Of a DNA stretch of 64,000 nucleotides, positions 10,273-46,282 are shown in pieces. The translations under genes were made by a program, and so were the position numbers. Position 1 is the first letter of the stretch. Every line of letters begins with the position of its first letter. Where the stretch lies: positions 3,431-67,430 of the forward strand of contig CALDTL010000021.1 of assembly GCA_937923965.1 (NCBI GenBank), given 5' to 3'. Source of the stretch: an uncultured Caulobacterales bacterium. Its GTDB lineage: Bacteria; Pseudomonadota; Alphaproteobacteria; Caulobacterales; Maricaulaceae. Below the pieces are notes generated by a model, which saw only the letters and a list, made by a program, of their open reading frames with translations, ran no database searches and was not told where the DNA came from.

Positions 10273-10644
10273 TTAGGCCGCGAAAGCCTGACAGAGCTTG
10301 ATCATTAGATTGCGATTGTCGCCGTTATCTATGTTTTTAAAAGCCAGCATGAGTTTTATATCTTGAGATGTTGCAACATTATTTGGGATAAGCTCACCTA
10401 ATGCATGGTTTTTATTTGAAGAGCTCAGGAGGCCTTCAAAGAGGAAATCCGGCGTGATTGAAAAAATATTGCACAATTGCCAAAGACGACTGACCGAAAT
10501 GCGGTTTAAGCCGGTCTCATATTTCTGGACTTGCTGATAGGTGATGTCCATGCGTTCGGCTAGATCTTTTTGTGACATTTTTTGAGCCATGCGAAGCATT
10601 TTTATTTGCTTACCTATGTGGCGCTCGATTTCGTCAAGTTCCAT
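10273..10644 (-). CDS. XRE-family HTH transcriptional regulator (left copy)
   Basis: IGKQIKMLR...SQKDLA...ITYQQVQKYETGLNRISVSRL, the alphaproteobacterial QKYE.G.NR.S subtype. Confidence 0.9.
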   Translation of the reverse strand: MELDEIERHIGKQIKMLRMAQKMSQKDLAERMDITYQQVQKYETGLNRISVSRLWQLCNIFSITPDFLFEGLLSSSNKNHALGELIPNNVATSQDIKLMLAFKNIDNGDNRNLMIKLCQAFAA

Positions 10645-10831
10645 AGATCCCCCTCAAATCAACACGCGATGATTCGGTTGCAATTGGCGTCGCGATAATT
10701 AGCTATAGATTCAACTTTCATCGCTGCAAAGAAGAAATAATACATCCTGCCTATGGGTATGTCATGAGGGTTCGATTTAAGGACTCCCAACGCCGTTCTA
10801 AGGCTGCGGGCGTTGCTGGAATTTCAATCTC

Positions 10832-11563
10832 TTAGTAATCGATAAGGCATTCGCCTATACCTCTAAGCGACGCTGTCGTCCTGTCTGACGTTCCAGTTTT
10901 CAGATATATTCGGCGTAGGTGGCCGTTTACGGTATGCTGTGAAATTCCTATAATATCGCCAATCACTGAGTTGCTCTTTCCATGAGCGACCCAAGTCAAA
11001 ATTTCTTTTTCTCGAATCGTAAGATCGATATTGTTGCTCCTAGATTTCGAATGGAGCTTACAAAAAATTTGGTGAGCGCTTTGGCTTGCCCAATGTAGAT
11101 GTCGAATTTGAGTTTTGGACAGACGGCAATCTGCGTCATTGAAGTGGAAAACCAGACAGCCATTTCTGCCACTCGCTTCAATCACCGGAACAATAATGCC
11201 GTTATGATGATCTCCGAGGTAGAATTTTTTCAACACATGGATTTGGTCTTCCGAAAGATCTAGCTGTGTCTCTGCTTTCGACCAAAAAACGGGGGTATTA
11301 ATCTGAGATGTTCGTTTCTCAAAAGGGCTTCTGAAAAACTTGTGCTGCCTTCGAAATTCAGTGACCTGATCTTGAGAGAAACCTCGAGCGAGAAATAATT
11401 TTTCATTAAAATCGGTCGCGCCTGGTGGGGGCAGATGATGATAACCCATCTTGTCGATGCCCAAGCTTTCAACATACCCGAAAAGGAGATCCCAGACGGA
11501 ATCAGGGGACGTCGTGCAATCGAGTTCATCCAGGAATTTATAAAGTTTAGCCCGTTCTGTCAT
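10832..11563 (-). CDS. LuxR-family regulator with N-terminal sensing-type domain (left copy)
   Basis: C-terminal HTH LTIREKEILTWVAHGKSNSVIGDIIGISQHTVNGHLRRIYLK; N-terminal autoinducer-binding-type fold (PVFW, G-x-IVPV). Confidence 0.9.
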   Translation of the reverse strand: MTERAKLYKFLDELDCTTSPDSVWDLLFGYVESLGIDKMGYHHLPPPGATDFNEKLFLARGFSQDQVTEFRRQHKFFRSPFEKRTSQINTPVFWSKAETQLDLSEDQIHVLKKFYLGDHHNGIIVPVIEASGRNGCLVFHFNDADCRLSKTQIRHLHWASQSAHQIFCKLHSKSRSNNIDLTIREKEILTWVAHGKSNSVIGDIIGISQHTVNGHLRRIYLKTGTSDRTTASLRGIGECLIDY

Positions 11564-11658
11564 TATTCAATCCCCAGTGATTGCCCGCGTCAGGGAGGAT
11601 GACGCGGTTTTAATCTCTCATATCACCTGAGGAATGCCCCCTGTGTGTGATTTGAGGT

Positions 11659-11674
11659 GTTAAAGAATTGTTAG
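11659..11674 (-). promoter_or_regulatory. CtrA-like box upstream of left luxR
   Basis: Minus strand CTAA-CAATTCT-TTAAC, one mismatch to TTAA-N7-TTAAC; GANTC site adjacent at 11675. Confidence 0.45.
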
Positions 11675-11856
11675 GAATCACTGGAAGTGAATACAAGCTA
11701 TAATTGTATCGAAATGTGCCAAAAAATGACTTTTTTTGAGTGATATAGGTTCTTTTCAGCTATTTTTCCCGAGTTGTTGATGTCTGAAGGGATTTTAAGT
11801 GTAATTTCTAAGGTGAATTAGAATCGAATCATCAGCCGTGGCTCTCAAAAAAATCT

Positions 11857-12411
11857 CTAGGGAGTCCCTTTCCGATACTTGGCATTTCGGCCGGAAATAA
11901 TGACGCTGATCGAGTAAGACTTTCGAGGGTCCATATTTGCCATGATTAAACCCGCATTTCCGCTTTCCATTTGACGCAAAAAACCGGCAGCAAAAGCTGG
12001 GTCCATCGAGTTGAAAATTTCTGCCGCTTGTTTGGGTTTCATTGTTTGATACATATCGACCAGATGCTTGATGTCTTCATTGGCAATGGACGTCATGCTT
12101 TTGATGTTAGTGTCTAAAACCGCATTCGCCGCTTCGATTGCCGTCATCTGAGTTTCAAGTTTGGCTTCAACTGCTGTCAAGGCTGTTTCGCGTTTCGCAA
12201 TTTCCTGTTTGCGCAAGTTCAGTCGAGTCATATCGGCTGTAATTGTTTCTAAAACGGCACCGGTTAGGCAGGTTTCATTCGGCTGGCTTGGAGACACGGT
12301 AGGAATGTCGGCGGGTTTTTCCTCAGGCGCGTCGGCCGAGAAGGCGACGGCTCGACTGATCAATAATACGGCGAAGGTAAATCCTATAACCGGAAGAATT
12401 CGTGTTCTCAT
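11857..12411 (-). CDS. motE: MotE-family flagellar protein
   Basis: Signal peptide, coiled coil, then LVDMYQTMKPKQAAEIFNSMDP..AAGFLRQM; flagellar context. Confidence 0.7.
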   Translation of the reverse strand: MRTRILPVIGFTFAVLLISRAVAFSADAPEEKPADIPTVSPSQPNETCLTGAVLETITADMTRLNLRKQEIAKRETALTAVEAKLETQMTAIEAANAVLDTNIKSMTSIANEDIKHLVDMYQTMKPKQAAEIFNSMDPAFAAGFLRQMESGNAGLIMANMDPRKSYSISVIISGRNAKYRKGTP

Positions 12412-12935
12412 GAGGCGGAGCGTTTCACATCTGAAAGATTAATAAGTGTGTCTTGTGACCAATATTCAATTGGTTTTGACGGCGGGTGCAGTTTCTTTTT
12501 GTAATCGTTTAAATCTGAGGCAACCTTCAACAATCCTGAGGCTGTAGCTTGTGCTCTTTCGACGGCGTCCGAAAGTTGCGTGTCTATTAGAGTGTCCAGC
12601 TGTCCACATTGAGCTTTGGCTCGGTCACTGGCCTGTTCTAATTCTGTCACAAGGGCCTCAACCTTTGGCCCCGCATTTTCGCATTTTTCTAGAAGATGAC
12701 GAAGCGTTTCCACAGTCTGCAAAGTGGAGTTCTGTGCCTCTTGCGTCGCGACATGAGTGTCCTCAATTGCCTGGGTAAGAGAAAGGATAGATGCACCCAC
12801 TCCTGTTTTGAGATTGTTCAGTTTTCTGAGGCGACGGCTTAACATCGCACAATATAGACAGGCTAATCCGGATATTAAAATCAATATCATATCTGGGATG
12901 TATGGCGCAATATCGTTCAAATTCGGGATTTGCAT
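12408..12935 (-). CDS. Flagellar-cluster hypothetical protein, single TM plus coiled coil (DUF6468-like)
   Basis: TM ending ...CLYCAMLSRRLRKL, then helical heptads; coupled between fliL and motE. Confidence 0.6.
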   Translation of the reverse strand: MQIPNLNDIAPYIPDMILILISGLACLYCAMLSRRLRKLNNLKTGVGASILSLTQAIEDTHVATQEAQNSTLQTVETLRHLLEKCENAGPKVEALVTELEQASDRAKAQCGQLDTLIDTQLSDAVERAQATASGLLKVASDLNDYKKKLHPPSKPIEYWSQDTLINLSDVKRSAS

Positions 12936-12937
12936 AA

Positions 12938-13459
12938 TTATCTTACCAAAAAGTCAGTTATTAGAATACCTCGAATATTTTCGGGGCCGAGAATAAGTTT
13001 AGCGCGGCGTAATAGCTGTGAGCGCATTTGTGCCATGAAAGCGGCATCTTCAATTTGCTCTAGACGTAGTGCGCGGAGGTAGCCCATGAATGCATCCCGA
13101 ATCCGGGGATCATTTGGATCTATATAGGCTTCCTCACCCGCGCGGGTCTCAAGCGTGATTCCGATTTTAAGAATGCGAGATTTTTCCTGTAGGGAAATCG
13201 TGAGCGGCGTAAGTTCTAAAAAACCGGTCTCTTCCGAAAAATCGATTTTCTCTTCCTCTGAAGCGTGCACGTTCGTCGCGTCTTTGACGATCAGTTCCGT
13301 TTGATGGCTAGGCAGCATAAAAACAGTCCCAAAGGAAGCGGCGGCCAAGACAACTAAAGTTACTAGCCCGCCAACGAAGCTACCCTTACTGGCAGTTTCG
13401 CCGTCGCCATCCGCTTGCACAGAGGGAGCCTTTTTTGCTTTTTTTGCTTTTCTAGCCAT
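12938..13459 (-). CDS. fliL: Flagellar basal body-associated protein FliL
   Basis: N-terminal TM; FLELTPLTISL, PRIRDAFMGYLRAL, ILITDFLVR. Confidence 0.85.
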   Translation of the reverse strand: MARKAKKAKKAPSVQADGDGETASKGSFVGGLVTLVVLAAASFGTVFMLPSHQTELIVKDATNVHASEEEKIDFSEETGFLELTPLTISLQEKSRILKIGITLETRAGEEAYIDPNDPRIRDAFMGYLRALRLEQIEDAAFMAQMRSQLLRRAKLILGPENIRGILITDFLVR

Positions 13460-13525
13460 GGAGCTTCTAGAGTCTTTCGTGATGTCTAAACAATCATATG
13501 GTGTTATTTAAGTAAAGCACTTATA

Positions 13526-13541
13526 GTAAACGTTCTATTAA
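13526..13541 (-). promoter_or_regulatory. CtrA-like box in fliL/fliF divergent region
   Basis: Minus strand TTAA-TAGAACG-TTTAC, one mismatch. Confidence 0.4.
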
Positions 13542-13607
13542 TGCTTTCAGCTCTAATTGATAGTCGCCTTATTGGTGTAAGATTCACTAAACAGAGATGG
13601 CTTCAGG

Positions 13608-15227
13608 ATGAATGTGATAAAAGTGTGGCTGGCCTTGTCGCCACAAAAAAGAATGATTTCGATTCTAAGCGTGGTCGCGACCGTCGCCGCACTTTTTTTC
13701 CTTATCAGCACGACTCTGAAACCTAAGATGGATCTCCTCTACGCAGGTTTAGAGCCCGCAGTTTCAGGTGAAATCATTTCAAAGCTCGAGACGATGGACG
13801 TTGCCTATGAAGTCAAAGGTGATGCGATTTATGCAGATGTAAAGCGCCGTGACTCTTTGAGGCTAGAGCTTGCGCGCGAGGGGCTCCCCAGACAAAGTGT
13901 TATTGGGTACGAACTCTTCGACAATATGAATAGTTTTGCGATGACGTCGGACATGTTTGATACGGCGTATTGGCGCGCAAAAGAAGGCGAGCTGGCCAGA
14001 ACCTTACTGGCCATGCCAAACATTCGCAGTGCGCGGGTTCATCTCGGAACACAAAAAACCAAAGGTTTCACAAACGGTCCTTCTGCGAACTCCGCATCTG
14101 TTACAATATCGGTCTCTGGTGGACTTTCCTCGCAGCAAGCTAAGGCTATTCAATATATGACGGCGTTAGCTGTCTCTGGTCTTGAACCTGATGATGTGGC
14201 CGTCATCGATACCGTTAGGGGTGTTGTTGCTGGTCCCGGTATAGATGGAGAAATGACCAAAGGCGGCATGGGGGAGCTTGAGCGAGCCGCTGAAATCAAA
14301 CAGAATTTGTTGAGTCTTTTGGAAGCCCGCGTTGGTCCTGGAAATGCGCGGGTCAATGTATCTCTTGAGATAGATCGTGAGCACATCAAGACGGCTGAGC
14401 GAAACTTTGATCCCGATTCTCGCGTTTTGAAATCTCAGACCACGAATGAGATGACAGATACGAGCGCAGGTACAACCGGGGCGGTGACGGTGGCAAGCAA
14501 CTTGCCAGAAGGCGACGCTGGGGGCGGAAATTCGACGTCCGACCGCAGCGAAACGACAGAAACAGTTACCTATGAAATCTCGGAAATAGTCCGAAACTCA
14601 GAGATATTACCGGGCGGTATTAAACGGATGACAGTGGCCGTGTTGGTCGGTGACGTGAATGTCACAAATGATGATGGAACAGTCTCGCGCACGCCGCGCT
14701 CCGAAGAAGAGCTTGTCGCTCTGCAAGAACTGGTCGCAACGGCGGCGGGACTTGATGACGCAAGAGGCGACAAATTAACGTTGAAAAGCCTGTCGTTCAA
14801 TCAACCTGATACGCCGGACCTCATAGAACGACCGGGTCTCATGCAGCAATTTATGGAACGCTATCTGTGGAGCACAATTCAGGCTGTCATTCTCGGAATT
14901 GTTATCCTGGGTTTGGGCGTGTTGGTGATCAAACCGCTCCTACTGCCTAGCGCCGTAGAACCCGTGCAGGGCTTGCTGCCGATGGACTTGAACTCAGGTG
15001 CCCTTGGCGGTCCGCAGGCCAATTTTGCGCTTGGTGGACCGGGCGAAAATCTTGGGCTTGAAGGCCCAAACACGCCTATGTTGATTGAGGCAACAGATGG
15101 GTTTCAAGGGGATACGCCATCAGATGATCCGATCGAACATTTGAAGTCTATAACCGCAACCCAGACGAATGATGCGGCCGACCTTTTGTCGAGTTGGCTT
15201 GAAGCGGACGCTCAAGCGACAAGCTGA
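13608..15227 (+). CDS. fliF: Flagellar MS-ring protein FliF
   Basis: Two TMs; GYELFD, AYWRAKEGELARTL, ARVHL, GGIKRMTVAVLV. Confidence 0.97.
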   Translation: MNVIKVWLALSPQKRMISILSVVATVAALFFLISTTLKPKMDLLYAGLEPAVSGEIISKLETMDVAYEVKGDAIYADVKRRDSLRLELAREGLPRQSVIGYELFDNMNSFAMTSDMFDTAYWRAKEGELARTLLAMPNIRSARVHLGTQKTKGFTNGPSANSASVTISVSGGLSSQQAKAIQYMTALAVSGLEPDDVAVIDTVRGVVAGPGIDGEMTKGGMGELERAAEIKQNLLSLLEARVGPGNARVNVSLEIDREHIKTAERNFDPDSRVLKSQTTNEMTDTSAGTTGAVTVASNLPEGDAGGGNSTSDRSETTETVTYEISEIVRNSEILPGGIKRMTVAVLVGDVNVTNDDGTVSRTPRSEEELVALQELVATAAGLDDARGDKLTLKSLSFNQPDTPDLIERPGLMQQFMERYLWSTIQAVILGIVILGLGVLVIKPLLLPSAVEPVQGLLPMDLNSGALGGPQANFALGGPGENLGLEGPNTPMLIEATDGFQGDTPSDDPIEHLKSITATQTNDAADLLSSWLEADAQATS

Positions 15228-15877
15228 TGGACCAAGCCCTTCGAAATAAGATACTGGTCTACGAGACCCCTGAAACGAAAGGTGACAGGCAGCCTTTAGC
15301 GGAAGGTGGACAGTCGACACTCATCGAAGCTGGCGTGGCTCTTTTTCATGCGATGCCCGAGGCGCCATTGGGCCTGGAAGAGATAGAAGATATCGTGATC
15401 TCCCAATATGATTTGGGGTTTCAAGAGGGCGAAGCGCGCGCGAATGCGCTTCATCATTCGGCTATCGAGGTTATGCAACAGGCTCTCGACAAAATTCACG
15501 CCGAGTCCAAAATTTTGGTTAAGCAAATTGAGCAAAGTCATCTGTCTGCTGTTGCGAAATGCCTACGTGTTGTCTTTCCAACACTCATGGACAGAGGAAT
15601 CGATTTGGAGCTTCAAACGGTTGTCAAGAACGCTTGCGGCTGGGCGCTCAACGGTCAGGTCGAGCTGATCGTTCATCCGGATGCCTTGCCGCATTGCGAA
15701 CGTCTTCGAGGCGAACAAGATATGCAAATTACGACTGACGAAACTCTTGAGCCAAAACAGATCCGGCTCAACTGGGTTGGCGGCGGAGCCGAAATCGACT
15801 GCCAAACGGTGGCGTCTCTTTGCCTTGATTGTCTCGATCCTGAGTCAAATAATTTAGTGGAGCCTAATGATGCCTGA
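15227..15877 (+). CDS. fliH: FliH-like export apparatus protein
   Basis: Follows fliF; YDLGFQEGEARA (GxxxG) segment, VELIVHPD, RLNWVGGGAEID. Confidence 0.65.
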   Translation: MDQALRNKILVYETPETKGDRQPLAEGGQSTLIEAGVALFHAMPEAPLGLEEIEDIVISQYDLGFQEGEARANALHHSAIEVMQQALDKIHAESKILVKQIEQSHLSAVAKCLRVVFPTLMDRGIDLELQTVVKNACGWALNGQVELIVHPDALPHCERLRGEQDMQITTDETLEPKQIRLNWVGGGAEIDCQTVASLCLDCLDPESNNLVEPNDA

Positions 15878-16220
15878 AGCAACATCGACATCAGATGCAA
15901 ATGATCCAGAATTTTCTGGTATCCCCTTATCAGAACGCCGGGATAGTGAGGAAGGGGCTGTCTATAAGCGCTCGATCTATGCGCTTCCAGTGGATGTTCA
16001 AGTCGTTATTGGAACAGCGCGTCCAACGATTGCTGAACTGCTGCAATTGAAACAAGACTCGTTGATTCAATTGGATAGCAAGATCGAAGATCCCGTAGAT
16101 CTTTGCATTAACAACCGTGTCATAGCGCGAGGAGAACTCATTGAAACAGATCCTGCAACCGGCAGCATCGGTGTCAAACTCACAGAGATTGTCGATATTT
16201 CCGAGGACTTACTTCAGTGA
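15867..16220 (+). CDS. fliN: Flagellar motor switch protein FliN
   Basis: SpoA domain LPVDVQVVIGTA...LDSKIEDPVDLCINNRVIARGEL...GVKLTEI. Confidence 0.9.
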   Translation: MMPEATSTSDANDPEFSGIPLSERRDSEEGAVYKRSIYALPVDVQVVIGTARPTIAELLQLKQDSLIQLDSKIEDPVDLCINNRVIARGELIETDPATGSIGVKLTEIVDISEDLLQ

Positions 16221-17035
16221 CGACGTCGCCATATTACGAACGAAAATCTGTATGGGTATGGGCATTTTTAATTTTGGGATACATGGCGTTATCCCTCGCT
16301 ATGGCGCCGTCTGCTTTTGCTCAGGTCGCGCCGGAAACATCTAACGCCTTACAGGACGTTTTAAATCTTGCGCAAACGACTGAAGATGCGGAAAGCGTTG
16401 GCCTCAACGCGCGCGTTATCCAATTATTTCTCATTGTGACGGTGCTCAGCCTTGCTCCCGGCCTGGCCATGATGATCACATGCTTACCTTTCATGGTCAT
16501 TGTTTTTTCGTTCTTGCGTCAGGCCATCGGCCTCCAGCAGTCGCCGCCCAATATGATGATTATGGGGTTGGCTATGTTTCTGACCTTTTTCGTGATGGAA
16601 CCGGTTTTCATGAAGTCTTATAATGAAGGATTGTCGCCCCTTATGAACGGATCTATCACAGAGGAACAGGCGATCGAACGTACGCTGGCACCGTTTGAAA
16701 CCTTTATGCAGAGCCGGGTTCAAAGGGATACGTTGGAGCGCTTGGCAGCGACCATGCCTAGTCGCAATTTTGATCTTGATAAAGACATTCCCTTTTCGCT
16801 TTTAACAACGTCGTTCATGCTGTCCGAAATCAAACAAGCCTTTCAGATTGGGTTTGTAATCTTCTTACCATTTTTGATCATAGACTTAATTGTCGCCTCT
16901 ATATTGATGGCGATGGGGATGATGATGGTGCCTCCGGCTGTCGTGTCTTTGCCGTTTAAACTAGCATTTTTTGTTATGGCGGACGGGTGGATAAAGATCA
17001 CTGAAGCGCTTTTGCGCGGATATGGTATGACCTGA
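16217..17035 (+). CDS. fliP: Flagellar export protein FliP
   Basis: LSLAPG, RQAIGLQQSPPN, AFQIGFVIFLPFLIID, MGMMMVPP, SLPFKLAFFVMADGW. Confidence 0.97.
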   Translation: MTTSPYYERKSVWVWAFLILGYMALSLAMAPSAFAQVAPETSNALQDVLNLAQTTEDAESVGLNARVIQLFLIVTVLSLAPGLAMMITCLPFMVIVFSFLRQAIGLQQSPPNMMIMGLAMFLTFFVMEPVFMKSYNEGLSPLMNGSITEEQAIERTLAPFETFMQSRVQRDTLERLAATMPSRNFDLDKDIPFSLLTTSFMLSEIKQAFQIGFVIFLPFLIIDLIVASILMAMGMMMVPPAVVSLPFKLAFFVMADGWIKITEALLRGYGMT

Positions 17036-18120
17036 TGGAACCTTTACCCATCTTGAATAACGCGCCGCCCGTGTTGGGAAATGGTGGACAACCTGCCTTA
17101 CTTAAAGCGCCGGAAAAGGCCGCGGTGATATTGGCTTTGTTGGGGCCTGAACATGCTGGACCTGTCGTTGAAAAAATCAAAGATGAGCATTTGCGGGCTT
17201 TCATGAATGCACTTGAGAATTTAAAGCTCATCCCGCGTGAGAGCATGTTAACGGTCGTCGCAGATTTTATTACAGAACTTCAGGCACGCCGAGGTGGACT
17301 TCGAGGCGGGGCAGCCGCGGCAAGAGAACTTGCGGAGAGTTTATTTGAGACGGAACGTGCGGCTCGGCTGTTTGGAAAAGCCCCAGCCGCGAATTTGGAG
17401 TATGCATCGTCAGAGACCATCTGGGCCGAGTTACGAATACGAAAAATCCCGGATATCGCCGCCTATTTGTCTCGCCAAAGAAGCGCCGTTATCAGCATTG
17501 TCCTATCGCAATTTTCTTCAGAGGTAGCGGGTGAAATATTATCCGAGCTTCCGGAAGAGCTTTCTGTTTTATGCGTTCGGCAAATGTCACGAGGTGAAAA
17601 GATAGACGACAGAACCTTAGCTGCGGTTGCCGAGCTAATCCAAACGGAATTTCTAGCCATCGTAGAGGCTGATGATGAAGTAGACTCAGTAGATTTCGTC
17701 AGTGAAATCCTGGGTATATTGCCCAAAGATCGACGAGATATGATGCTGGATAGTTTGGACGAAGCGGATCCCGAACAAGCTAAGCTCATTCGAAAGCGAA
17801 TGTTGACATTCGAAGATTTGCCAAAACGTCTTCCGACGACGGCTATTCCGATAATCTTTAAAGATATTGACACTGAGATCTTGTTGAAAGCTTTGAAAGC
17901 GGGACAGGGTCAAGCGCCAGACACAGTGGAATTTTTATATGCAAATATCTCCCAGCGTATGGCAGGGCAATATAAGGAGCAGGTCGAAGAATTGGCCGCT
18001 ATAAGCCAGAAAGAGGCTGATGCCGCCATTTCAACTCTGATGGGGTTCATAGGTAGGCTAGAAAAACAAGGCCGTGTAACGCTAATTAAGCTCGTCTCCG
18101 AGGACGCAGGAGACGCTTAG
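17035..18120 (+). CDS. fliG: Flagellar motor switch protein FliG
   Basis: EKAAVILALLG, RMLTFEDL, LLKALK, NISQRMA. Confidence 0.92.
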   Translation: MEPLPILNNAPPVLGNGGQPALLKAPEKAAVILALLGPEHAGPVVEKIKDEHLRAFMNALENLKLIPRESMLTVVADFITELQARRGGLRGGAAAARELAESLFETERAARLFGKAPAANLEYASSETIWAELRIRKIPDIAAYLSRQRSAVISIVLSQFSSEVAGEILSELPEELSVLCVRQMSRGEKIDDRTLAAVAELIQTEFLAIVEADDEVDSVDFVSEILGILPKDRRDMMLDSLDEADPEQAKLIRKRMLTFEDLPKRLPTTAIPIIFKDIDTEILLKALKAGQGQAPDTVEFLYANISQRMAGQYKEQVEELAAISQKEADAAISTLMGFIGRLEKQGRVTLIKLVSEDAGDA

Positions 18121-18122
18121 TT

Positions 18123-19235: not shown

Positions 19236-19237
19236 AT

Positions 19238-20248: not shown

Positions 20249-20256
20249 GGTAACCT

Positions 20257-33675: not shown

Positions 33676-33878
33676 TTTAACAGGTTATTATTATTTGGTG
33701 TGTATCAAGAGGTGCAATCCAGGAAGGGTTGCGCTTGCCGCGTTCGGTTTCATTCGATCAGCCGCAAGCAAAAATGTCAGGATGACTTAGTTTGTTGCAC
33801 TTTATTGAGGTGTGATGGTGTTGAGGTTCTTTCGATCTCATAATTTTTATAAGCGCAAAGCGCATACAGGAAAAACTT

Positions 33879-35078: not shown

Positions 35079-35096
35079 AACGGATTGAGTGAATTA

Positions 35097-35129: not shown

Positions 35130-35161
35130 CAATACACGGTCAGTAACGTCAGGTCTTAAAA

Positions 35162-35584: not shown

Positions 35585-35587
35585 AAA

Positions 35588-36043: not shown

Positions 36044-36051
36044 CCCGCCAC

Positions 36052-38261: not shown

Positions 38262-38322
38262 CTGCTTTAACTATAAAAATTCTTGGTTCATTAATACTTC
38301 ATTCAACTATGTGGTGTATTTC

Positions 38323-38338
38323 TTAGTTAATCGTTAAC
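38323..38338 (+). promoter_or_regulatory. CtrA-like box in fliI/flgB divergent region
   Basis: TTAG-TTAATCG-TTAAC, one mismatch. Confidence 0.5.
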
Positions 38339-38362
38339 TATGATGACAAGGATTGTTTCATC

Positions 38363-38725: not shown

Positions 38726-38788
38726 GACCCTTCGGCGCCCGTCAGGATGACGCGTGCCCCCATTCAACATTAAATGCGGGAGGCGTTT

Positions 38789-39187: not shown

Positions 39188-39196
39188 GAGATTTAC

Positions 39197-39511
39197 ATGG
39201 ACCCTGTCTCGTTAGGTGCTGCGCGTCAGTATCAAATCGCTAAACAAGCTCTCGGGCCAGAAAGCCTCAAGGGCGCCGCAAAAGCCGCAGGAAATGAGGC
39301 TGCGAAATCTCCGATGTCGCAAGGCATTCAGGAGTTTTCGCAGATATTCGAAAAAGTTGAGATTACAACTCAAGCCATGAGCGTGGGGCAGGGCGACGCC
39401 CATGCGGTCGTTGAGGCTATGGCCACTGCTGAGGTGGCATTGGAAACGGCCGTGACAATACGAAATCGGGTCGTTGAAGCGTATCAAGAGTTACTGAGAA
39501 TGCCGGTTTAA
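39197..39511 (+). CDS. fliE: Hook-basal body protein FliE
   Basis: AEVALETAVTIRNRVVEAYQELLRMPV. Confidence 0.93.
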   Translation: MDPVSLGAARQYQIAKQALGPESLKGAAKAAGNEAAKSPMSQGIQEFSQIFEKVEITTQAMSVGQGDAHAVVEAMATAEVALETAVTIRNRVVEAYQELLRMPV

Positions 39512-39777
39512 TGTCCGAAACAGACATCTTATCGGTTCTCCAGGAATTTTTGTGGGGCGCGGCATTGATGGCGTTGCCTCTGTTGGCGGCAGCCCTTATC
39601 GTGGGCTTGGTTGTTGGGTTATTGCAAGCACTGACGGGCATCCAAGAGATGACCCTTACCTTTGTTCCAAAACTCGCTGTCATGTTGCTCGTCTTCTTCA
39701 TTTCCGCCGGATATATGGCCCGTATTTGTGTCAGCCTTTTTGACAATCACGTCATTCCCGTGATCGCCGGAACTTAA
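39511..39777 (+). CDS. fliQ: Export protein FliQ
   Basis: VGLVVGLLQALTGIQEMTLTFVPK. Confidence 0.95.
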   Translation: MSETDILSVLQEFLWGAALMALPLLAAALIVGLVVGLLQALTGIQEMTLTFVPKLAVMLLVFFISAGYMARICVSLFDNHVIPVIAGT

Positions 39778-39788
39778 GCTCGCGCGAT

Positions 39789-41873
39789 ATGCCAAAGTTA
39801 ACATTATCGTCCTTTAACAACCCGACGGTTTTTCTCGCCATGGGGCTGATGATGATCATCATTATGATGGTCTTGCCGGTTCCATCATGGATCCTAGATG
39901 CCGGTCTCACCGTGTCTTTTGCTTTTGCAATCCTGATTTTTACAATTGTGTTATTTATTGAGCAGCCGCTGGACTTTTCCTCCTTTCCTGCCGTTCTCTT
40001 GGCGTCTTTGCTCTTGCGTTTATCGCTGAATATTTCGTCTACTAAATTGATAATTGGCGAAGGTCATACTGGGTCAGGCGCGGCCGGAGGCGTCATCGAA
40101 GGGTTCGCCATGTTTATAATGGGGGGCAACATCTTCATTGGCCTGATCGTGTTCTCGGTCCTCGTCATCGTGAATTTTATGGTCATTACGAAAGGCGCAG
40201 GCCGCATGGCGGAAGTCGGTGCGCGCTTCGCCTTAGATGCCATGCCTGGCAAGCAAATGGCGATTGATGCAGATCTGGCTGCTGGGGCAATCAGCCATGA
40301 GGAAGCCCGCCTTCGGCGGACAAGAGAGCAAGAGGAAACAGCCTTTCTCGGGTCTTTAGACGGCGTATCAAAATTCATGAAGGGCGACGCCATTGCGGGC
40401 ATACTGATCACTTTGCTGAATCTGATCGCGGGCATTGCCATTGGGGTCGGCGTTCACAAAGTTGGCTTTGGCGAGGCGATGAAAAATTACTCCATCCTGA
40501 CCGTAGGAGATGGGTTGGTTTCGCAGATTCCAGCCGTAATCATTTCCATTGCTGCGGGCTTGTTGCTCGCGAAAGGTAAAGGTGAGGGGACGGTTGATCT
40601 TTCGCTGTTTAAGCAATTTGCTCAATATCCTTCGGCTTTGATGGCGGTCTCGGGGATTATGCTGATTTTTGCATTCTTTCCGGGACTTCCCTTTATTCCA
40701 TTTATGATCGGTGCGCTTGTTCTCGGCTATGTCGCCTACCGATCGATTATGTCTTCAGAAGCTGAGAAGGAAAGTCAGGAACAGACTGAAAAAATCGAAC
40801 AAGACGCTCCGTCGGAACCGCTCTTGGGCGATGCTATGGATATTGATGAAGTACATGTTGAGTTGTCGAAAGAGCTTGTTCCTGTCGCCATGAGCGAAGA
40901 TTTTGGGTTCGATAAGAGAGTTGAAAAAATACGAAAATATGTTGCAACCGAATTTGGTTTCATTTTGCCATCCATCCGGTTGACCGATAACACACAGCTC
41001 GAAGCCAATACATATCGTATAAATATTCAGGGCTCTGAGGTCGCGAGTAATCTGCTGCATCCACGTCATATTCTCGCGTTGATGGAGACCGCAGACAATC
41101 CAGAAATCCCAGGTATAAATACCCGAGAGCCGGTCTATAATGCGCCGGCCCGCTGGGTCGGAAAAGAGCATCAGGACGAGTTAATGATGCTCGGTGTTCC
41201 CACAGTTGAGGTCACGGAAGTTCTGGCGACGCATCTGTTAGAAACAGTTCAGGCGAATTTCACGAAACTTCTGACACGCCGATCATTGCGCGAAACTTTG
41301 GACACATTCAAGGACGTCACAGATCCCGACCGCGCTGCCTCAAATAAGAAAATCCTAGAAGAGTTTCTACCGGATAAGGTTCCTATGGAAAGTCTTCAAG
41401 CCGTCTTGCGACTTCTTTTGGAGGAACGAATTTCCATTCGTAATATTCCGGTTATCTTGGAAACTATTGCCGAGGCCCGGGGTTCATTGACGGCGCCCGA
41501 TCAAATCGCTGATTTTGTGAGACGACGTCTCAGTTACCAATTTGTGACCAAATTACGTGATAGTCAGGGTCGGTTGCCTTTGGTGCAAATCGGGCCAGAT
41601 TGGGAGACACAATTTTCTTCACATGAAATCGCTGACGGGTCGGGCCGAACAGACATCGCTTTGCCGCCCGATGAGTTCAATCGCCTTGCGAACTCTGTTA
41701 AATCCCAATTGGATCAATCAGCCACCCAAGGTCATTTTGCTGCCGTTGCGACAAGTGCGAAACGGCGACGTTTTTTGAAGACAGTTTTATCTGCAAAGGG
41801 TATTCGAAATCCCGTCATATCTTATGAAGAGATCACGGCGACCGAACGTCCGGCGATTGTCGGCGTGGCCTAA
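39789..41873 (+). CDS. flhA: Export gate protein FlhA
   Basis: RLSLNISSTKLI, TKGAGRMAEVGARFALDAMPGKQMAIDADL, LTVGDGLVSQIPA. Confidence 0.98.
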   Translation: MPKLTLSSFNNPTVFLAMGLMMIIIMMVLPVPSWILDAGLTVSFAFAILIFTIVLFIEQPLDFSSFPAVLLASLLLRLSLNISSTKLIIGEGHTGSGAAGGVIEGFAMFIMGGNIFIGLIVFSVLVIVNFMVITKGAGRMAEVGARFALDAMPGKQMAIDADLAAGAISHEEARLRRTREQEETAFLGSLDGVSKFMKGDAIAGILITLLNLIAGIAIGVGVHKVGFGEAMKNYSILTVGDGLVSQIPAVIISIAAGLLLAKGKGEGTVDLSLFKQFAQYPSALMAVSGIMLIFAFFPGLPFIPFMIGALVLGYVAYRSIMSSEAEKESQEQTEKIEQDAPSEPLLGDAMDIDEVHVELSKELVPVAMSEDFGFDKRVEKIRKYVATEFGFILPSIRLTDNTQLEANTYRINIQGSEVASNLLHPRHILALMETADNPEIPGINTREPVYNAPARWVGKEHQDELMMLGVPTVEVTEVLATHLLETVQANFTKLLTRRSLRETLDTFKDVTDPDRAASNKKILEEFLPDKVPMESLQAVLRLLLEERISIRNIPVILETIAEARGSLTAPDQIADFVRRRLSYQFVTKLRDSQGRLPLVQIGPDWETQFSSHEIADGSGRTDIALPPDEFNRLANSVKSQLDQSATQGHFAAVATSAKRRRFLKTVLSAKGIRNPVISYEEITATERPAIVGVA

Positions 41874-42676
41874 TGGATTTCCTGACAAATTTCTCTGATG
41901 TCATATTGGAGAATATTCTTCTTCTCGTACCTGTCATTGCGATTTTCACTCGTCTGTCCATTTTTATCTATTTGCTTCCCGGCGTCGGCGAGACGGTCAT
42001 ACCGCAGCGCATAAGGCTTGGCATGGCCTTCCTTATTACATGGATTCTCGTGCCCCTTATATTGCCAAACCTGACGGTTCCAAATCTCACGCTGCAAGCG
42101 GGGGCTTTGTTAATTGTGAAGGAAGGGTTTTATGGATTTGTTCTGGGGTTCGCTTTCCGATTGATGGTTTTTACCTTGCAAATTCTAGGGAATATTGTGT
42201 CTCAGGCCTTGTCAATTTCTCAAGTTCTGGGCGAAGGCATAGCAACGGAGCCAAACACGACAATCAGCACACTGCTTATGATGGCTGGCGCGACATTACT
42301 CGTAACGATGGACCTACATATTGAGGCAATTGGTGTTTTTTACCGGAGCTATGAGGTTTTTCCGATCGGCAGCGCACCAAATTTGGATAATATTGCCTAT
42401 TGGATGACGCATAAAGCCATGGGAACGATCAGTTTTGCTGTGACTCTCGCGCTGCCTTTTATCATATTGAACTTTGTCTATAATTTGATGCTGGGATTCC
42501 TTAATCGCGCCATGCCTCAGCTTATGGTGTCTTTCGTTGGCATGCCTGCCATCACTGGAGCAGGCTTGTTCCTCATGGTTATCGCGACGGGGAGTATATT
42601 GCTGTTTTGGGCGCAGGAATATTGGACATCCTTTAATGGATTTCAGGACCTGTCCAATTATGGGTTTCCGCAATGA
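41873..42676 (+). CDS. fliR: Export protein FliR
   Basis: LPGVGE..IP.RIR, LNRAMPQLMVSFVGMP; multiple TMs. Confidence 0.92.
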   Translation: MDFLTNFSDVILENILLLVPVIAIFTRLSIFIYLLPGVGETVIPQRIRLGMAFLITWILVPLILPNLTVPNLTLQAGALLIVKEGFYGFVLGFAFRLMVFTLQILGNIVSQALSISQVLGEGIATEPNTTISTLLMMAGATLLVTMDLHIEAIGVFYRSYEVFPIGSAPNLDNIAYWMTHKAMGTISFAVTLALPFIILNFVYNLMLGFLNRAMPQLMVSFVGMPAITGAGLFLMVIATGSILLFWAQEYWTSFNGFQDLSNYGFPQ

Positions 42677-43755
42677 GTGGCGGGGGCGATAATGATGGTC
42701 AGGAAAAGTCCTTTGATGCATCTGAGTCAAAGATTAAAAAATCACGGGACAAAGGCGATACGCCGCAGTCAAAAGAAGCCAATACATTTATGCTCTATGC
42801 GAGCCTTATGGTTGTGATCGCCATGGTGGGCGGGAGTGTAACACAACAGTTATTTTCCTCTATGTCAGTTATGCTCTCTCGTCCTTCTGAGCTGGGCACC
42901 ATGTTACTCCAAGATCAGGACGCTGTTCCATTTAGAGGCCTATTAAGCGCGATTGTCGTTGCGATGGGACCCGTGTTCCTCATACCCATGGTTTTTATCC
43001 TGATTTCGCTCGTTATCCAGCAGGCTATCGTTGTTGCGCCAGAGAAAATTAAACCAAAACTGTCTCGCATTTCGCCAATCTCCAATGCCAAACAAAAATA
43101 CGGGCCCACGGGTATGGTTGAGTTTCTCAAGCAATTTGCGAAGCTATCTTTCATAGCGGCTATTGCGGGGTTGTTCTTTTACCAAGCCTTTTATGAACTC
43201 GCAGGGCTCAGCTCGACATCCCCTCATACGCTTTTGGGGGAGATGAAACGTGTGACGTTAAAATTGACGCTATATATTCTCGTCGCCACGGCTTTGATAA
43301 CTCTGGTGGATCTCCCCTATGCGCGATTTGCGCATATGAAAAAATTGCGGATGACGCTCCAGGAAGTGAAAGATGAGTCTAAAGAGAGCGAAGGTGATCC
43401 TCATATGAAACGAGCGCGCCGTATGCGCGCAGAAGAAATTTCCAAATCAAACATGCTGCGAGATGTCGCTCAAGCGGACGTGATTATTGTAAACCCAACG
43501 CATTACGCGGTTGCGCTCCAGTGGTCGCGTGACACAGGCACTGTGCCGCTTTGTGTTGCCAAAGGTACGGACGAACTCGCGATGCGTATTCGAGAGCGCG
43601 CAGCTTTACATGACATACCCATTCACTCTGACCCGCCCTGCGCCCGGTCTCTTCACGCTGTTGTGGAGATTGGAGAGGGGATTAAACCCGAACATTATGC
43701 GGCGGTCGCGGCGGCTATTCATTTTGCCGACTCGGTGCGTCCTAAGGATTATTAA
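42673..43755 (+). CDS. flhB: Export switch protein FlhB
   Basis: EKSFDASESK, EVKDESKESEGDP, autocleavage motif NPTHYAVAL. Confidence 0.97.
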   Translation: MSGGGDNDGQEKSFDASESKIKKSRDKGDTPQSKEANTFMLYASLMVVIAMVGGSVTQQLFSSMSVMLSRPSELGTMLLQDQDAVPFRGLLSAIVVAMGPVFLIPMVFILISLVIQQAIVVAPEKIKPKLSRISPISNAKQKYGPTGMVEFLKQFAKLSFIAAIAGLFFYQAFYELAGLSSTSPHTLLGEMKRVTLKLTLYILVATALITLVDLPYARFAHMKKLRMTLQEVKDESKESEGDPHMKRARRMRAEEISKSNMLRDVAQADVIIVNPTHYAVALQWSRDTGTVPLCVAKGTDELAMRIRERAALHDIPIHSDPPCARSLHAVVEIGEGIKPEHYAAVAAAIHFADSVRPKDY

Positions 43756-43762
43756 GGCCAGC

Positions 43763-44182
43763 ATGAGCAAGTTAACAAAGATCGCCAAAATTCTTACGCT
43801 TCAACGAACCATCTGCGAGAGAGAGATTGCCGCATTGCGGATGAAAATGGCGGGCCACAATATAGAAATCCTCAAAATCCAGACGGAAATTAATGTGAAA
43901 AGCGATATGTGTTTCTCTGGAATTTCGGCCGAGGGCCCTATCCGGGAGGCGAGACAATTTGCGACATGGAATGAGCTAATGCGTGAAAAATTATTAGAAT
44001 TATCTGCGCAGAATGCTGAGCTTTCCAATCTTCTAAACATGAGGAAGGCTGCTCTCAAAGCATTGATTGTAAAAGAAGACCTCATTACGTCTCAGTTGGC
44101 TCACCGAGACTTTGTTGCCTTGGAGACACGGCTTCAGGGGGAAGCAGATCTCCGCCTCGAGCATTGGGTAATGTCCCGGTAA
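43763..44182 (+). CDS. Coiled-coil protein after flhB, possible FliJ-like chaperone
   Basis: 139 aa from ATG 43763, fully helical heptads, 7 nt after flhB; no other fliJ candidate in the cluster. Confidence 0.5.
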   Translation: MSKLTKIAKILTLQRTICEREIAALRMKMAGHNIEILKIQTEINVKSDMCFSGISAEGPIREARQFATWNELMREKLLELSAQNAELSNLLNMRKAALKALIVKEDLITSQLAHRDFVALETRLQGEADLRLEHWVMSR

Positions 44183-44325
44183 ATAATTACACTGCCGCCC
44201 GCAAAAAAGGGGGAGGAAGGGGTTAGTTAATTTGTGCTAGTGTGCTTGACTGGGCTCGAATGCCCTGGGCTGGGTAAGTTCTGTTTGGCGTGATATTGAT
44301 TACTAAAGGTTGTGTCGCGGGCAAC

Positions 44326-44340
44326 TGAAAAATCCTTTAA
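44326..44340 (+). promoter_or_regulatory. CtrA-like box with adjacent TGTCGCG (SciP-type motif at 44313-44319)
   Basis: TGAA-AAATCCT-TTAA, one mismatch, upstream of ORF 44350. Confidence 0.25.
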
Positions 44341-44349
44341 GGGGGAAAT

Positions 44350-44739
44350 ATGAACACTTCATTGAAGATGGATTCTGATGTGAATTCTGATGTGAGTGCG
44401 GTAGATGTTGATCTTGTTATTACGCAAGACAATAGATCGATTAAGGACATCATTGATGAGTACAAGGCCATTACAATAAAGTTGAGTTTATTGGCTGATA
44501 ATGTTCCGGGCACGGAAGAAGAAAATGTAGAAGATCTTATCAAGAAGGAAATTTTCCTTTTAGATCGCCGTGCGGCGCTTCTCGAAACAGCACTTTCACG
44601 GCCTGTTACGAGCCATGATGGAGCCGTAGAAATTTTAGCACTCTGGCATCTTGAGGTTATCCAAAGTCAAACCGCCGACAGTCTTTCGGCCGCTGATGAA
44701 TTGGTCAAATCCGTGTACGATTACCTCAAAATCAACTGA
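44350..44739 (+). CDS. Hypothetical acidic helical protein
   Basis: 129 aa, purine-rich RBS, 29 nt before the XRE gene. Confidence 0.6.
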   Translation: MNTSLKMDSDVNSDVSAVDVDLVITQDNRSIKDIIDEYKAITIKLSLLADNVPGTEEENVEDLIKKEIFLLDRRAALLETALSRPVTSHDGAVEILALWHLEVIQSQTADSLSAADELVKSVYDYLKIN

Positions 44740-44768
44740 TACTGCATCTAGCTGCAAGGAGGGTTCAT

Positions 44769-45134
44769 ATGCCCACCAATAATTCTAATCGGACTGCCAC
44801 TATAATTGACGAATATGTTGGCAGTCGTTTGAAGTCACTGCGAATGGATAGGGGAGTCAGCTTGAATGAGCTGGGTGAATTAGTTGATGTTTCATATCAG
44901 CAAATCCAGAAATACGAAAATGGGTCAAATCGAATTAGTGTCGGTCGCTTATGGGACTTTTGTAAAGTTTTTGAGGTCGTGCCAAATTACTTTTTCTTGG
45001 GGTTATGGGATAAAAATGAAGGCCGGTTCCATGATACTGACTTTATCAGAGCTCGGCACTCATTTAGGCAAGCCAGGACGGCCCATGCCGCGTTAAATGT
45101 CGGGTCTGGAACGAGCCGGGTGCTCTCTCGCTAA
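44769..45134 (+). CDS. XRE-family HTH transcriptional regulator (right copy)
   Basis: VGSRLKSLR...VSYQQIQKYENGSNRISVGRL. Confidence 0.9.
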   Translation: MPTNNSNRTATIIDEYVGSRLKSLRMDRGVSLNELGELVDVSYQQIQKYENGSNRISVGRLWDFCKVFEVVPNYFFLGLWDKNEGRFHDTDFIRARHSFRQARTAHAALNVGSGTSRVLSR

Positions 45135-45254
45135 CGAGGTTTCCCAGCTCAATAACATTGATCTAATCAGCGCGCCCGGGGGACAACGAGAGGCCTATCA
45201 AAATAGTCGATAAAAATTAACCAAATTAACCCTCTATTAGTTCTTTAAACAATA

Positions 45255-45374
45255 TACACCAAATACGGGAGTTTACAGCCGCTCTCGTATCCCGAATAAA
45301 TCCCATTGAATTGGGTGATATTCATCCCTCGATCGGCCTGACAGCCTTCCCAAAGGGGCTTGTCAGGCCTTTTT
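45255..45374 (+). ncRNA. Candidate small RNA with three stem-loops
   Basis: Stems ATACGGGAG/CTCTCGTAT, GAATA..CCCA/TGGG..TATTC, then a terminator hairpin. 5' end is a guess. Confidence 0.35.
45335..45374 (+). terminator. Intrinsic terminator
   Basis: GGCCTGACA/TGTCAGGCC stem extended by GCCTT/GGGGC, followed by TTTTT. Confidence 0.8.
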
Positions 45375-45580
45375 CGTGTGACGTTAACGCCCTTTGTCTC
45401 GAAAACAAACTGCCCCCAATGGCGCGACGCGATTAGCCCTTTATTCTTTCGCTCTCTGCGAGTAGCTATTTTTGGGTAGTCTTGATTCGATACCTGTTAG
45501 CCATGGGTGATTGACACGGGATTGACCGAGGCTGCTCAAACAACATCCCGGACTTTAATCGACGTTGCAAAGGGGAGGAT

Positions 45581-46282
45581 ATGGGTATTATTTCCGCTTT
45601 AGATGATCCAGACTTTCCCGCTGAGGTATTCTGTACACTAGGGAAAAATCCTGTGACGCCAAACAGCAGCGCCTTAGCGTTAGCGACGCTTTGGGAATAT
45701 CTCAGGTGCAATAATTTTAATGGATTCGGGTATTACCTATTCGACGTGACGACAGGTCAGCGAATAGCGCGGCAGGCACGATATAAAAGGTTAAATGAGT
45801 CCCAAGCTTTCAGCGTTTTTGACACGGTCCTGGAGGAGGTATTTTCTGCCGACCTGTCACAAGAGTCTGAGATCAAAACCAATGACGGCGCCGGGGCATT
45901 GTTGATTTATCCCGTTTATGGCCCGCATTACCAAAATGCAGTTTTTATTGTTGAAATGGAGTCCTTACCTAACTTGAGTATAGGAGATCTGCGTTGGAAT
46001 TTGGGCGCGGTTCTCCAGCAAGTTCATGTTACCATTGCGAAATCGGACTCATTGGCGCGACAGGCGGAATATTCACTTTCCCCCCGAGAGACAGAGGTTT
46101 TGACGTTGATGTCCCGGGGGCAGAGCAATCGTTCGATCGCCGAGAGTTTGGGGTTATCTGTTTACACGATAAATGCTCATGTTCGAAATCTCATGTTGAA
46201 GCTGGGTGAAACCGATCGGGTGAGTGCTTGTATCAGGGGATTGACGGTGCTCAGCGGATCAAGCGGGAATAATGCGCAGTAA
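45581..46282 (+). CDS. LuxR-family regulator (right copy), divergent N-terminal domain
   Basis: LSPRETEVLTLMSRGQSNRSIAESLGLSVYTINAHVRNLMLKLG; GGAGG RBS. Confidence 0.88.
   Translation: MGIISALDDPDFPAEVFCTLGKNPVTPNSSALALATLWEYLRCNNFNGFGYYLFDVTTGQRIARQARYKRLNESQAFSVFDTVLEEVFSADLSQESEIKTNDGAGALLIYPVYGPHYQNAVFIVEMESLPNLSIGDLRWNLGAVLQQVHVTIAKSDSLARQAEYSLSPRETEVLTLMSRGQSNRSIAESLGLSVYTINAHVRNLMLKLGETDRVSACIRGLTVLSGSSGNNAQ

Follow-up and report, generated by a model that had tools for sequence, protein, structure and literature searches.

The 64-kb window, i.e., the whole stretch of DNA analyzed here (contig CALDTL010000021.1), has a guanine-cytosine (GC) content of ~48% and holds a complete alpha-type flagellar gene cluster that spans positions 11857–44182 from fliL to orf138, includes flaF and flbT, and is bracketed by two pairs of regulator genes: XRE_L and LuxR_L at the left end, and XRE_R and LuxR_R at the right end (Table 1). 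The core cluster genes were identified with NCBIfam and Pfam, except for fliE, fliQ, and fliR, which were assigned by synteny with the related locus L003 (loci of relatives are cited by such numbers). The source lineage is a Hellea-like marine bacterium with all flagellum genes in one 32-kb block; among its nearest named relatives, FlhB is 83% and 78% identical in Hellea sp., 74% in a metagenome-assembled genome (MAG) of the Maricaulaceae, and 57–58% in Litorimonas. Hellea is placed in the Maricaulales (Robiginitomaculaceae), and DNA of the locus has been detected in marine metagenomes. Gene calls and Pfam confirmed the four regulator genes in the positions, strands, and domains that an earlier note on this DNA had given. 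Comparison with relatives shows that only the left pair stays with the flagellar genes as a conserved partner, one that appears not to have been described before. The symmetric bracket of four regulators arose by accidental accretion in this lineage and is no conserved design.

In nine lineages, every LuxR_L homologue that is 41% or more identical and has a readable neighborhood follows the fliL-orf175-orf184 operon and adjoins an XRE_L orthologue. Identity to LuxR_L is 78% in L004, L005, and L006, 56% in both L001 and Hellea sp. AM-377-K14 (L014), 52% in L029, 51% in L002, 44% in L030, and 41% in L026 and L031. Homologues of 39% identity or less have neither the fliL operon nor an XRE_L orthologue as a neighbor in 77 of 80 metagenome loci and in three further loci (L025, L027, and L028; Hellea balneolensis, Amaricoccus, and one other), and those of 38% or less were rejected as members of the left module for their non-flagellar context. 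XRE_L is better conserved across lineages than LuxR_L: its orthologues, always beside LuxR_L, are 62–89% identical over the full length, compared with 41–78% for LuxR_L, and the gene is under strong purifying selection. The outer neighbors of the pair vary per lineage (Glu_synthase, peptidase S58, PilZ with an integrase, a response regulator with GerE, or a giant protein).

In seven of these nine lineages the XRE_L and LuxR_L genes converge, and a small helical open reading frame (ORF) of 100–107 amino acids (aa) is conserved between the two genes in five (L001, L002, L014, L026, and L029). As read from gene order, the ancestral left end consists of LuxR_L, the ~100-aa ORF, and a convergent XRE_L. 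In the window lineage and its closest relative the small ORF has been lost and XRE_L has been inverted; the outward orientation is therefore derived. The retention of the pair in nine lineages shows an old, lineage-specific LuxR-solo/XRE module attached to the fliL operon, and the earlier claim that a LuxR-type regulator belongs with the flagellar cluster is borne out for this end. Additional LuxR-type sequences occur near the left pair of some relatives. In L026, the most distant lineage carrying the left module, XRE_L is followed at 9029–10264 by genes for a 143-aa protein with a receiver domain alone and for a further GerE protein of 256 aa. Extra LuxR-type genes are thus recruited repeatedly, though at differing positions. 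In L001 a fragment 38% similar over 70 aa to the helix-turn-helix (HTH) of LuxR_L lies at 9755–9964, just 5' of the full gene, and may be the remnant of a tandem duplication.

RhlR and LasR both align with the family profile of LuxR_L from end to end (E 1e-17 to 1e-16), and the contacts to N-acylhomoserine lactones (AHLs) are not kept. At the reference positions TraR W57, Y61, D70, P71, W85, and G113 (LasR W60, Y64, D73, P74, and W88), LuxR_L has Q66, F70, S79, P80, W94, and G122, and the equivalents of LasR Y56, W60, Y64, and D73 are F62, Q66, F70, and S79. The W and D of the LasR W60 and D73 columns are each found in 1 of 17 LuxR_L orthologues; the structural P, W, and G persist. No LuxI-type synthase (Autoind_synth) was found among the scanned ORFs of the window or the called genes of L001, L002, L014, and L026. 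LuxR_L thus belongs with the non-AHL kind of LuxR solo within the quorum-sensing type, and its AHL pocket is degenerate. The minus-strand leader of its gene contains an 8-bp GC-rich hairpin (11585–11607, 22–44 nucleotides [nt] 5' of the start codon) with CCUCC in the loop, which may sequester the GGGGA ribosome-binding site and is weakly conserved in L004.

The two LuxR proteins share 31% identity over 118 aa. The N-terminal autoinducer-binding domain of LuxR_R has no Pfam match, and its homology was detected by hhalign only, with a probability of 99.6% over 202 columns of the LuxR_L family profile that makes both domains homologous. LuxR_R has just two homologues among 5.8 billion clusters (61% and 42% identity). 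The VisN/VisR parallel drawn in the earlier note does not hold as one of descent: the NCBIfam scores are 39.4 and 19.2 bits for LuxR_L and 18.7 and 28.4 bits for LuxR_R, mostly over the HTH, against equivalog cut-offs of 250 bits (VisN) and 300 bits (VisR), and neither LuxR is a VisN/VisR equivalog. The two genes are also 34 kb apart, unlike the adjacent visN and visR. A comparison of LuxR_L with plasmids, seeking annotated vis genes, returned generic LuxR proteins only, at ~25% identity.

XRE_L and XRE_R are 48% identical over 67 aa, and the shared motif reported for them earlier is present in both as YQQ.QKYE.G.NRISV.RLW. Its core, [YF]QQ.QKYE.G.NR[IVL], also occurs in 110 of the 150 best XRE_L family representatives and in 26 of 30 XRE_R homologues. 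XRE_L matches 25,685 representative clusters at E ≤0.001 and 2,258 at ≤1e-10, and the motif common to both ends is, by its distribution, a family signature. In a neighbor-joining tree of HTH cores, the XRE_L orthologues form a tight separate clade (73–93% identity) and the XRE_R orthologues (54–62%) are interleaved with non-flagellar XREs. On the strength of this tree, and of an HTH-core identity of 45% between XRE_L and XRE_R that is no higher than that of either to unrelated family members, the two were rejected as sister paralogues. Beyond the HTH, the tails of XRE_R orthologues do not align. The non-flagellar relatives of XRE_R include XREs of ~94 aa, which are 55–61% identical to it in the HTH core, about as close as its flagellar orthologues. 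They sit between rbfA and infB in the nusA-infB-rbfA-truB-rpsO region of ten contigs from marine metagenomes (L015–L024; e.g., L015 4707–4991), an unusual site for a transcription factor gene, and were rejected as extra right-end cases because this context is unrelated to flagella.

An AlphaFold model of XRE_L built from 39 family sequences (predicted local distance difference test [pLDDT] 87.5) has helices at residues 3–68, a disordered linker at 77–84, and helices at 93–103 and 108–122, i.e., an HTH domain joined by a flexible linker to a C-terminal two-helix hairpin. Fold searches returned mostly HTH matches, such as the HTH domains of C.BclI, SinR, and ClgR at a root-mean-square deviation (rmsd) of 1–2 Å. 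Matches to the two-domain fold (phi106 repressor/AimX, SinR/SinI, and DdrO) all had a high rmsd, such as 8.2 Å over the 98 columns aligned with SinR (1b0n_A). XRE_L further matches phage XREs (Atu_ph08, PBC5, and Caulobacter and Brevundimonas phages) at 31–40% identity (E 1e-13 to 1e-6), with the Caulobacter proteins themselves outside the comparison. These phage proteins are grouped with cdxA in PMC10688885, and the earlier assignment to the subtype that regulates adhesion in Caulobacter is supported as a probable membership in the broad alphaproteobacterial family.

At the right end, orf129 and XRE_R follow flhB-orf138 in five Hellea-like lineages (the window, L003, L007, L008, and L109). 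The orf129 homologues of L003, L007, and L008 are 50–58% identical, and in L109 a 122-aa ORF immediately 5' of XRE_R was assigned to the place of orf129 by position, not by sequence. No match to orf129 was found in Pfam or NCBIfam and no relative in the JGI metagenomes; its single-sequence AlphaFold model has three helices at low confidence (pLDDT 62), too weak for a fold search. By their arrangement, orf129 and XRE_R are a probable operon. This operon was absent after flhB, as scored at the cluster end, in the Maricaulaceae MAG, which has mobile-element genes there, and in four Litorimonas-type genomes; gene absences were scored near the cluster throughout and are no proof of absence from the whole genome. 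LuxR_R is present in two or three of at least nine lineages having LuxR_L. In Hellea sp. AM-377-K14, LuxR_L, XRE_L, and XRE_R are kept, and chemotaxis genes follow XRE_R at a right end with no LuxR_R; in L008 the place between orf138 and orf129 is taken by another LuxR paralogue. XRE_R and LuxR_R are moreover separated by a 446-nt spacer with a terminator, and the right pair is therefore two transcription units and not a cassette.

One 38.6-kb scaffold (scaffold_690) of a close relative has these four genes around its cluster as well, and since the arrangement recurs there it was inherited and is not due to chance. Identity between the window and this scaffold is 89% for FlhB and XRE_L and 78% for LuxR_L but 53–59% for XRE_R, 43% for orf353, and 42% for LuxR_R. 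The comparisons show a right end that is younger and fluid, with a probable orf129-XRE_R operon limited to a Hellea subclade. Beyond the terminator they likewise show LuxR_R, orf146, and the PilZ-like gene orf353 as a separate unit, fast-evolving and found in two or three lineages. A homologue of orf353 (43% identical) follows LuxR_R in L003 (10895–11989), and in Hellea sp. AM-377-K14 a 31% identical one with a weak PilZ match is found at the left end, immediately 5' of XRE_L (L014 9933–10877). The PilZ-like protein, with the motif DISMNG and a degenerate RxxxR, accompanies the regulators but switches cluster end.

All four regulator genes are transcribed outward, away from the cluster, as a continuation of the outward-reading terminal flagellar operons. 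Their physical order is XRE-LuxR...XRE-LuxR, with a LuxR gene proximal to the cluster at the left and an XRE gene at the right, and no inverted DNA repeat linking both ends was found. Where the earlier note had described mirror cassettes that point outward, the outward direction holds as a derived state, the mirror symmetry does not (the order is not mirrored and the repeat is missing), and the right-hand cassette is broken by the terminator. The synteny check across relatives that the note had called for gives a divided answer as well, as the left pair tracks the flagellar cluster and the right pair is patchy.

Table 1. Features of the regulator-bracketed flagellar locus and its flanks (window coordinates).
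Feature	Position	Strand	Description
Giant beta-helix-type repeat protein	5753–10243		1,496 aa; secreted
XRE_L	10273–10644	-	123 aa; Pfam HTH_3 (PF01381), E 2.9e-14; full-length identity 76–89% in eight other lineages
LuxR_L	10832–11563	-	243 aa; Autoind_bind (PF03472), E 3e-12; GerE (PF00196), E 1.7e-13
LuxR_L upstream region	11564–11856	-	293 nt; carries CtrA-like box
fliL-orf175-orf184 operon	11857–13459	-	FliL by Pfam; orf184 with weak FlbB/MgtE_N match only (Pfam/NCBIfam); order kept in L001, L002, L004, L014, L026, L031
fliL/fliF divergent promoter spacer	13460–13607	both	CtrA-like repeat and two ACACCA motifs
Core flagellar cluster (position: entire core), first part	13608–43755		fliF, fliN, fliP, fliG, flgI, flgL, flgK, flgE, motB, fliM-like, motA
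Core flagellar cluster, middle	within 13608–43755		flgF, flgG, flgA, flgH, flgD, fliK, flgJ-like, flgN-like, flagellin, flaF, flbT, DUF1217
Core flagellar cluster, last part	within 13608–43755		fliI, flgB, flgC, fliE, fliQ, flhA, fliR, flhB
ACACCA copies	13499–13504, 13573–13578, 33696–33701, 33816–33821, 38312–38317, 45256–45261, 46356–46361		
orf138	43766–44182	+	directly 3' of flhB; homologues after flhB in L007, L008, L009, L109; no match in family scans
orf129	44350–44739	+	small helical protein; 29-nt gap to XRE_R
XRE_R	44769–45134	+	121 aa; HTH_3, E 1.4e-10; HTH only, tail unconserved
CtrA-like box and ACACCAAAT	45226–45264	+	XRE_R/LuxR_R spacer
Intrinsic terminator	45335–45374	+	hairpin and T-run between XRE_R and LuxR_R
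LuxR_R	45581–46282	+	233 aa; GerE, E 5e-16; divergent ligand-binding-like domain
orf146	46367–46807	+	small ORF; N-terminus signal-peptide-like; no family match; no homologue in any locus compared
orf353	46859–47920	+	membrane protein; PilZ-like C-terminus (DxSxxG kept, RxxxR degenerate); no Pfam match of the window copy
Giant RTX-type repeat protein	48102–53354		1,750 aa; secreted

No perfect TTAA-N7-TTAA box, the form expected of a CtrA site, occurs in the 64 kb, and TTAACCAT is found once in the window, outside the cluster, with no enrichment. One-mismatch CtrA boxes are not enriched in the window as a whole (24 vs. 28 expected). Nine of them are in spacers inside or next to the cluster (2,246 nt in total), compared with 2.9 expected from dinucleotide shuffles (P ~0.002), including those in the divergent fliL/fliF and fliI/flgB spacers and in the regions 5' of LuxR_L, orf129, and LuxR_R. 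The direct repeat TTAA-N7-TTTAC in the fliL/fliF spacer (13527–13541) is invariant in six lineages. Upstream of LuxR_L, the half-sites of the one-mismatch box CTAAC-N6-TTAAC (minus strand, 11660–11674) are kept in the close relative L004 with a changed spacer, and they are not conserved in more distant lineages. The half-sites of TTAA-N7-TTAG in the XRE_R/LuxR_R spacer (45226–45240) are kept in L003 with a different spacer (TTAACACTAATTTAG). The box 5' of orf129 (44326–44340) was rejected as a conserved site because it is not kept in relatives. The layer of CtrA control suggested earlier is thus partly sustained: near-consensus boxes are enriched in the spacers and one is conserved, but perfect ones are missing.

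A second motif, ACACCA(A/T)(A/T)T (often ATACACCAWWT), was chosen post hoc and has seven copies in the cluster spacers (0.9 expected), which usually adjoin CtrA-like boxes. The two copies in the fliL/fliF spacer are invariant in six lineages, and the motif is a candidate operator or promoter element, as judged from its placement. Within the XRE_R/LuxR_R spacer (45217–45374), a CtrA-like box, ACACCAAAT (45256–45264), and, ~70 nt on, the terminator follow each other in this order, and all are kept in L003. The terminator, a 35-nt hairpin with a T-run ~200 nt past the XRE_R stop codon, has a predicted free energy of -25.5 kcal/mol (z -3.6; 0 of 200 shuffles as stable) and is nearly identical in L003. 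The spacer, which has no Rfam match, could be a short independent transcript (small RNA) or a leader/attenuator of LuxR_R, rather than just the 3' end of XRE_R. An Rfam scan of 10–48.2 kb found nothing relevant, and, apart from the four regulator genes, the scanned window ORFs include no transcription factor gene (such as rem, ftcR, ctrA, flbD, or rpoN), with five ORFs at 57.3–64.0 kb outside the scan.

Both flanks of the locus encode giant secreted repeat proteins that may be adhesins. The one at the left, with beta-helix-type repeats, ends 30 nt from XRE_L, and a third protein of the beta-helix kind is encoded at 3597–5033. The RTX-type protein at the right lies beyond the right unit and consists of ~15 tandem modules of ~75 aa with C-terminal GGxGxD repeats. 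The GC content dips to 0.436 (10001–12000) and 0.457 (44001–46000) in the regulator-bearing ends and is 0.48–0.53 over most of the cluster. In relatives, mobile DNA is found at the cluster ends or near the cluster, such as a relaxase and HigB/HigA directly after orf138 in L009 (11678–17562), HipBA and an insertion-sequence (IS) transposase in L001 (14178–17350), and an integrase with conjugation genes (TrbI and DUF2274) in L014 (11036–16846), and these ends have the look of hot spots for insertion.

We favor, with a probability of roughly 55%, the reading that the flagellar cluster has a LuxR-solo/XRE module of its own, specific to the lineage, to which later accretions were added. LuxR_L, no longer reading AHLs, would act as a cluster-dedicated transcription factor that activates flagellar promoters, in a role like that of VisN/VisR or VjbR without being their orthologue, and would probably work alongside CtrA bound at the near-consensus boxes. 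XRE_L would be a SinR-like repressor of the CdxA/PraR family, with its HTH and C-terminal helical hairpin, that probably couples motility to the sessile program. The small helical proteins may antagonize the XREs, i.e., the product of the ~100-aa ORF could act on XRE_L in relatives and orf129 on XRE_R, and LuxR_R and XRE_R would be accessory modulators rather than obligate partners. In most lineages the conserved regulators are found with the variable ones missing, which makes obligate heterodimers of LuxR_L with LuxR_R or of XRE_L with XRE_R unlikely; the regulators may form heteromers facultatively.

Several observations weigh against a dedicated flagellar module. The conservation of CtrA-like boxes would also fit a cluster driven by CtrA alone, and no lux-box-like operator was identified. 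A shared operator 5' of XRE_L was not found across the lineages; the promoter changed with the inversion of XRE_L. As non-flagellar XREs from a translation-factor operon are about as close to XRE_R as its own flagellar orthologues, family membership says nothing about targets. With regard to the small ORFs, orf129 and the ~100-aa ORF of relatives were rejected as homologous partners in a duplicated two-gene module (hhalign probability 0.2%), and neither has a known fold. Finally, both ends were observed in one genome for three lineages only (the window, scaffold_690, and Hellea sp. AM-377-K14), and the sequencing runs that hold the locus are marine DNA metagenomes, with no RNA run among them.

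A more far-reaching proposal, which we hold as tentative and well short of even odds, is that LuxR solo, small helical protein, and XRE form a class-I switch of the flagellar hierarchy in Maricaulales of the Robiginitomaculaceae type, with its logic duplicated at the other cluster end in the Hellea subclade. LuxR_L would read a non-AHL cue and activate flagellar promoters beside CtrA, and the XRE would be titrated by the small protein, as in SinI/SinR and CinS/PraR, flipping cells between swimming and attachment; the duplicated logic would comprise orf129-XRE_R and then LuxR_R with the PilZ-like receptor.

We consider it unlikely that the regulators mainly control the adjacent non-flagellar genes, i.e., those of the giant repeat proteins and the PilZ-like protein, for surface attachment, with motility and adhesion loci as mere neighbors. 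Such targets would fit the closeness of the beta-helix protein to XRE_L, the RTX-type protein beyond the right unit, and a PilZ-like gene that is always 3' of LuxR_R and lies directly upstream of XRE_L in Hellea sp. AM-377-K14, and adhesins are among the targets of this XRE family in Caulobacter and Rhizobium (PMC10688885). However, the outer neighbors of LuxR_L/XRE_L change in every lineage while the fliL operon is constant, and the constant neighbor of XRE_R is flhB-orf138-orf129.

The earlier proposal that all four proteins form one local circuit, in which LuxR_L/LuxR_R and XRE_L/XRE_R heterodimers like VisN/VisR are layered over CtrA, has become improbable. Paralogous XREs of this family do form heteromers in Caulobacter two-hybrid assays (PMC10688885), the LuxR proteins are homologous across both domains, and both the window and scaffold_690 have all four genes at the ends of the cluster. 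The full bracket is nevertheless confined to these two close relatives: LuxR_R has two homologues in all clusters searched, is missing from the right end of Hellea sp. AM-377-K14 despite the presence of LuxR_L, XRE_L, and XRE_R, and is replaced in L008 by another paralogue at another position, and XRE_R is absent from the right ends of the Maricaulaceae and Litorimonas. The lower identity of LuxR_R (42% vs. 78% for LuxR_L) between the window and scaffold_690 is unlike that of a co-constrained obligate pair, both LuxRs fall under the VisN/VisR cut-offs, and the XREs are not sister paralogues. Least probable is neutral accretion at recombination or insertion hot spots, with the right-hand genes especially as passengers without a motility role, since the mobile or variable DNA at relatives' cluster ends (L009, L001, and L014), the GC of 0.44–0.46 at both ends, and the poor conservation of LuxR_R and orf146 stand against the retention of the left pair in nine lineages, where XRE_L is under strong purifying selection, that of orf129-XRE_R in five, and a conserved terminator and CtrA-like box in the right spacer.

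Only a few models exist for the master regulation of flagella in the Alphaproteobacteria: CtrA (Caulobacter and Rhodobacter), the VisNR-Rem cascade of rhizobia, and that of VjbR-FtcR in Brucella. Algae and particles, on which prosthecate marine Maricaulales are common, are places where the choice to swim or stick matters, and to our knowledge the flagellar control of these bacteria is unstudied. The conserved LuxR-solo/XRE pair on the cluster is a concrete candidate for this control, and LuxR_L adds a case to the LuxR solos in which the AHL pocket is gone.

A literature search found no paper describing a flagellar cluster bracketed by LuxR and XRE genes. As summarized in PMC6180460, VisN/VisR of Sinorhizobium meliloti (Sourjik et al. 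2000) resemble the window LuxRs as LuxR-family proteins with a ligand-binding-like domain and a GerE HTH, with no AHL synthase seen nearby and genes in or beside an alpha-type flagellar cluster with flaF and flbT. In the window, by contrast, the LuxRs are far under the NCBIfam cut-offs, their genes are not adjacent, only one of the two is conserved, and the cluster contains no Rem/OmpR-type intermediate regulator. VjbR and BlxR, which PMC10134790 summarizes as LuxR-type regulators of the flagellar and type IV secretion system genes of Brucella, are a parallel by that description, not by sequence, as LuxR solos tied to flagellar expression in an alphaproteobacterium; FtcR, which acts downstream in Brucella, has no counterpart gene among the scanned ORFs.

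The CdxA/PraR/PhrR/RtrA/RtrB family and phage TgrL (PMC10688885) share with the window XREs the signature [YF]QQxQKYExGxNR; the family length is ~125–135 aa with a C-terminal extension, and XRE_L matches the phage members named there (31–40% identity). Within the Caulobacter group, the DNA-binding domains are 64–80% identical (PMC10688885). XRE_L forms its own tight clade in a flagellar context rather than the conserved cdxA neighborhood, and XRE_R is without a conserved C-terminal part. The same source provides the precedents for heteromers among Caulobacter XRE paralogues and for the anti-repressor pairs PraR/CinS (Rhizobium leguminosarum) and SinR/SinI (Bacillus subtilis), in the former of which a quorum-sensing locus of LuxR type includes the small protein (PMC10688885). 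The likeness to these pairs lies in the HTH-linker-helical hairpin layout of XRE_L and in a small helical ORF beside each XRE; it is architectural only (rmsd 8–9 Å over both domains), and SinI and CinS have no sequence similarity to the small ORFs of the window or its relatives. With regard to CtrA, the window differs from the fla2 promoters of Rhodobacter sphaeroides in that every box has one mismatch (e.g., TTAA-N7-TTTAC), TTAACCAT is not enriched, and ctrA was not seen among the scanned ORFs. The two systems are alike in their divergent fliF/fliL and fliI/flgB pairs with CtrA-like boxes in short spacers, and in R. sphaeroides the divergent fliF2/fliL2 promoter is CtrA-dependent (PMC6180460).

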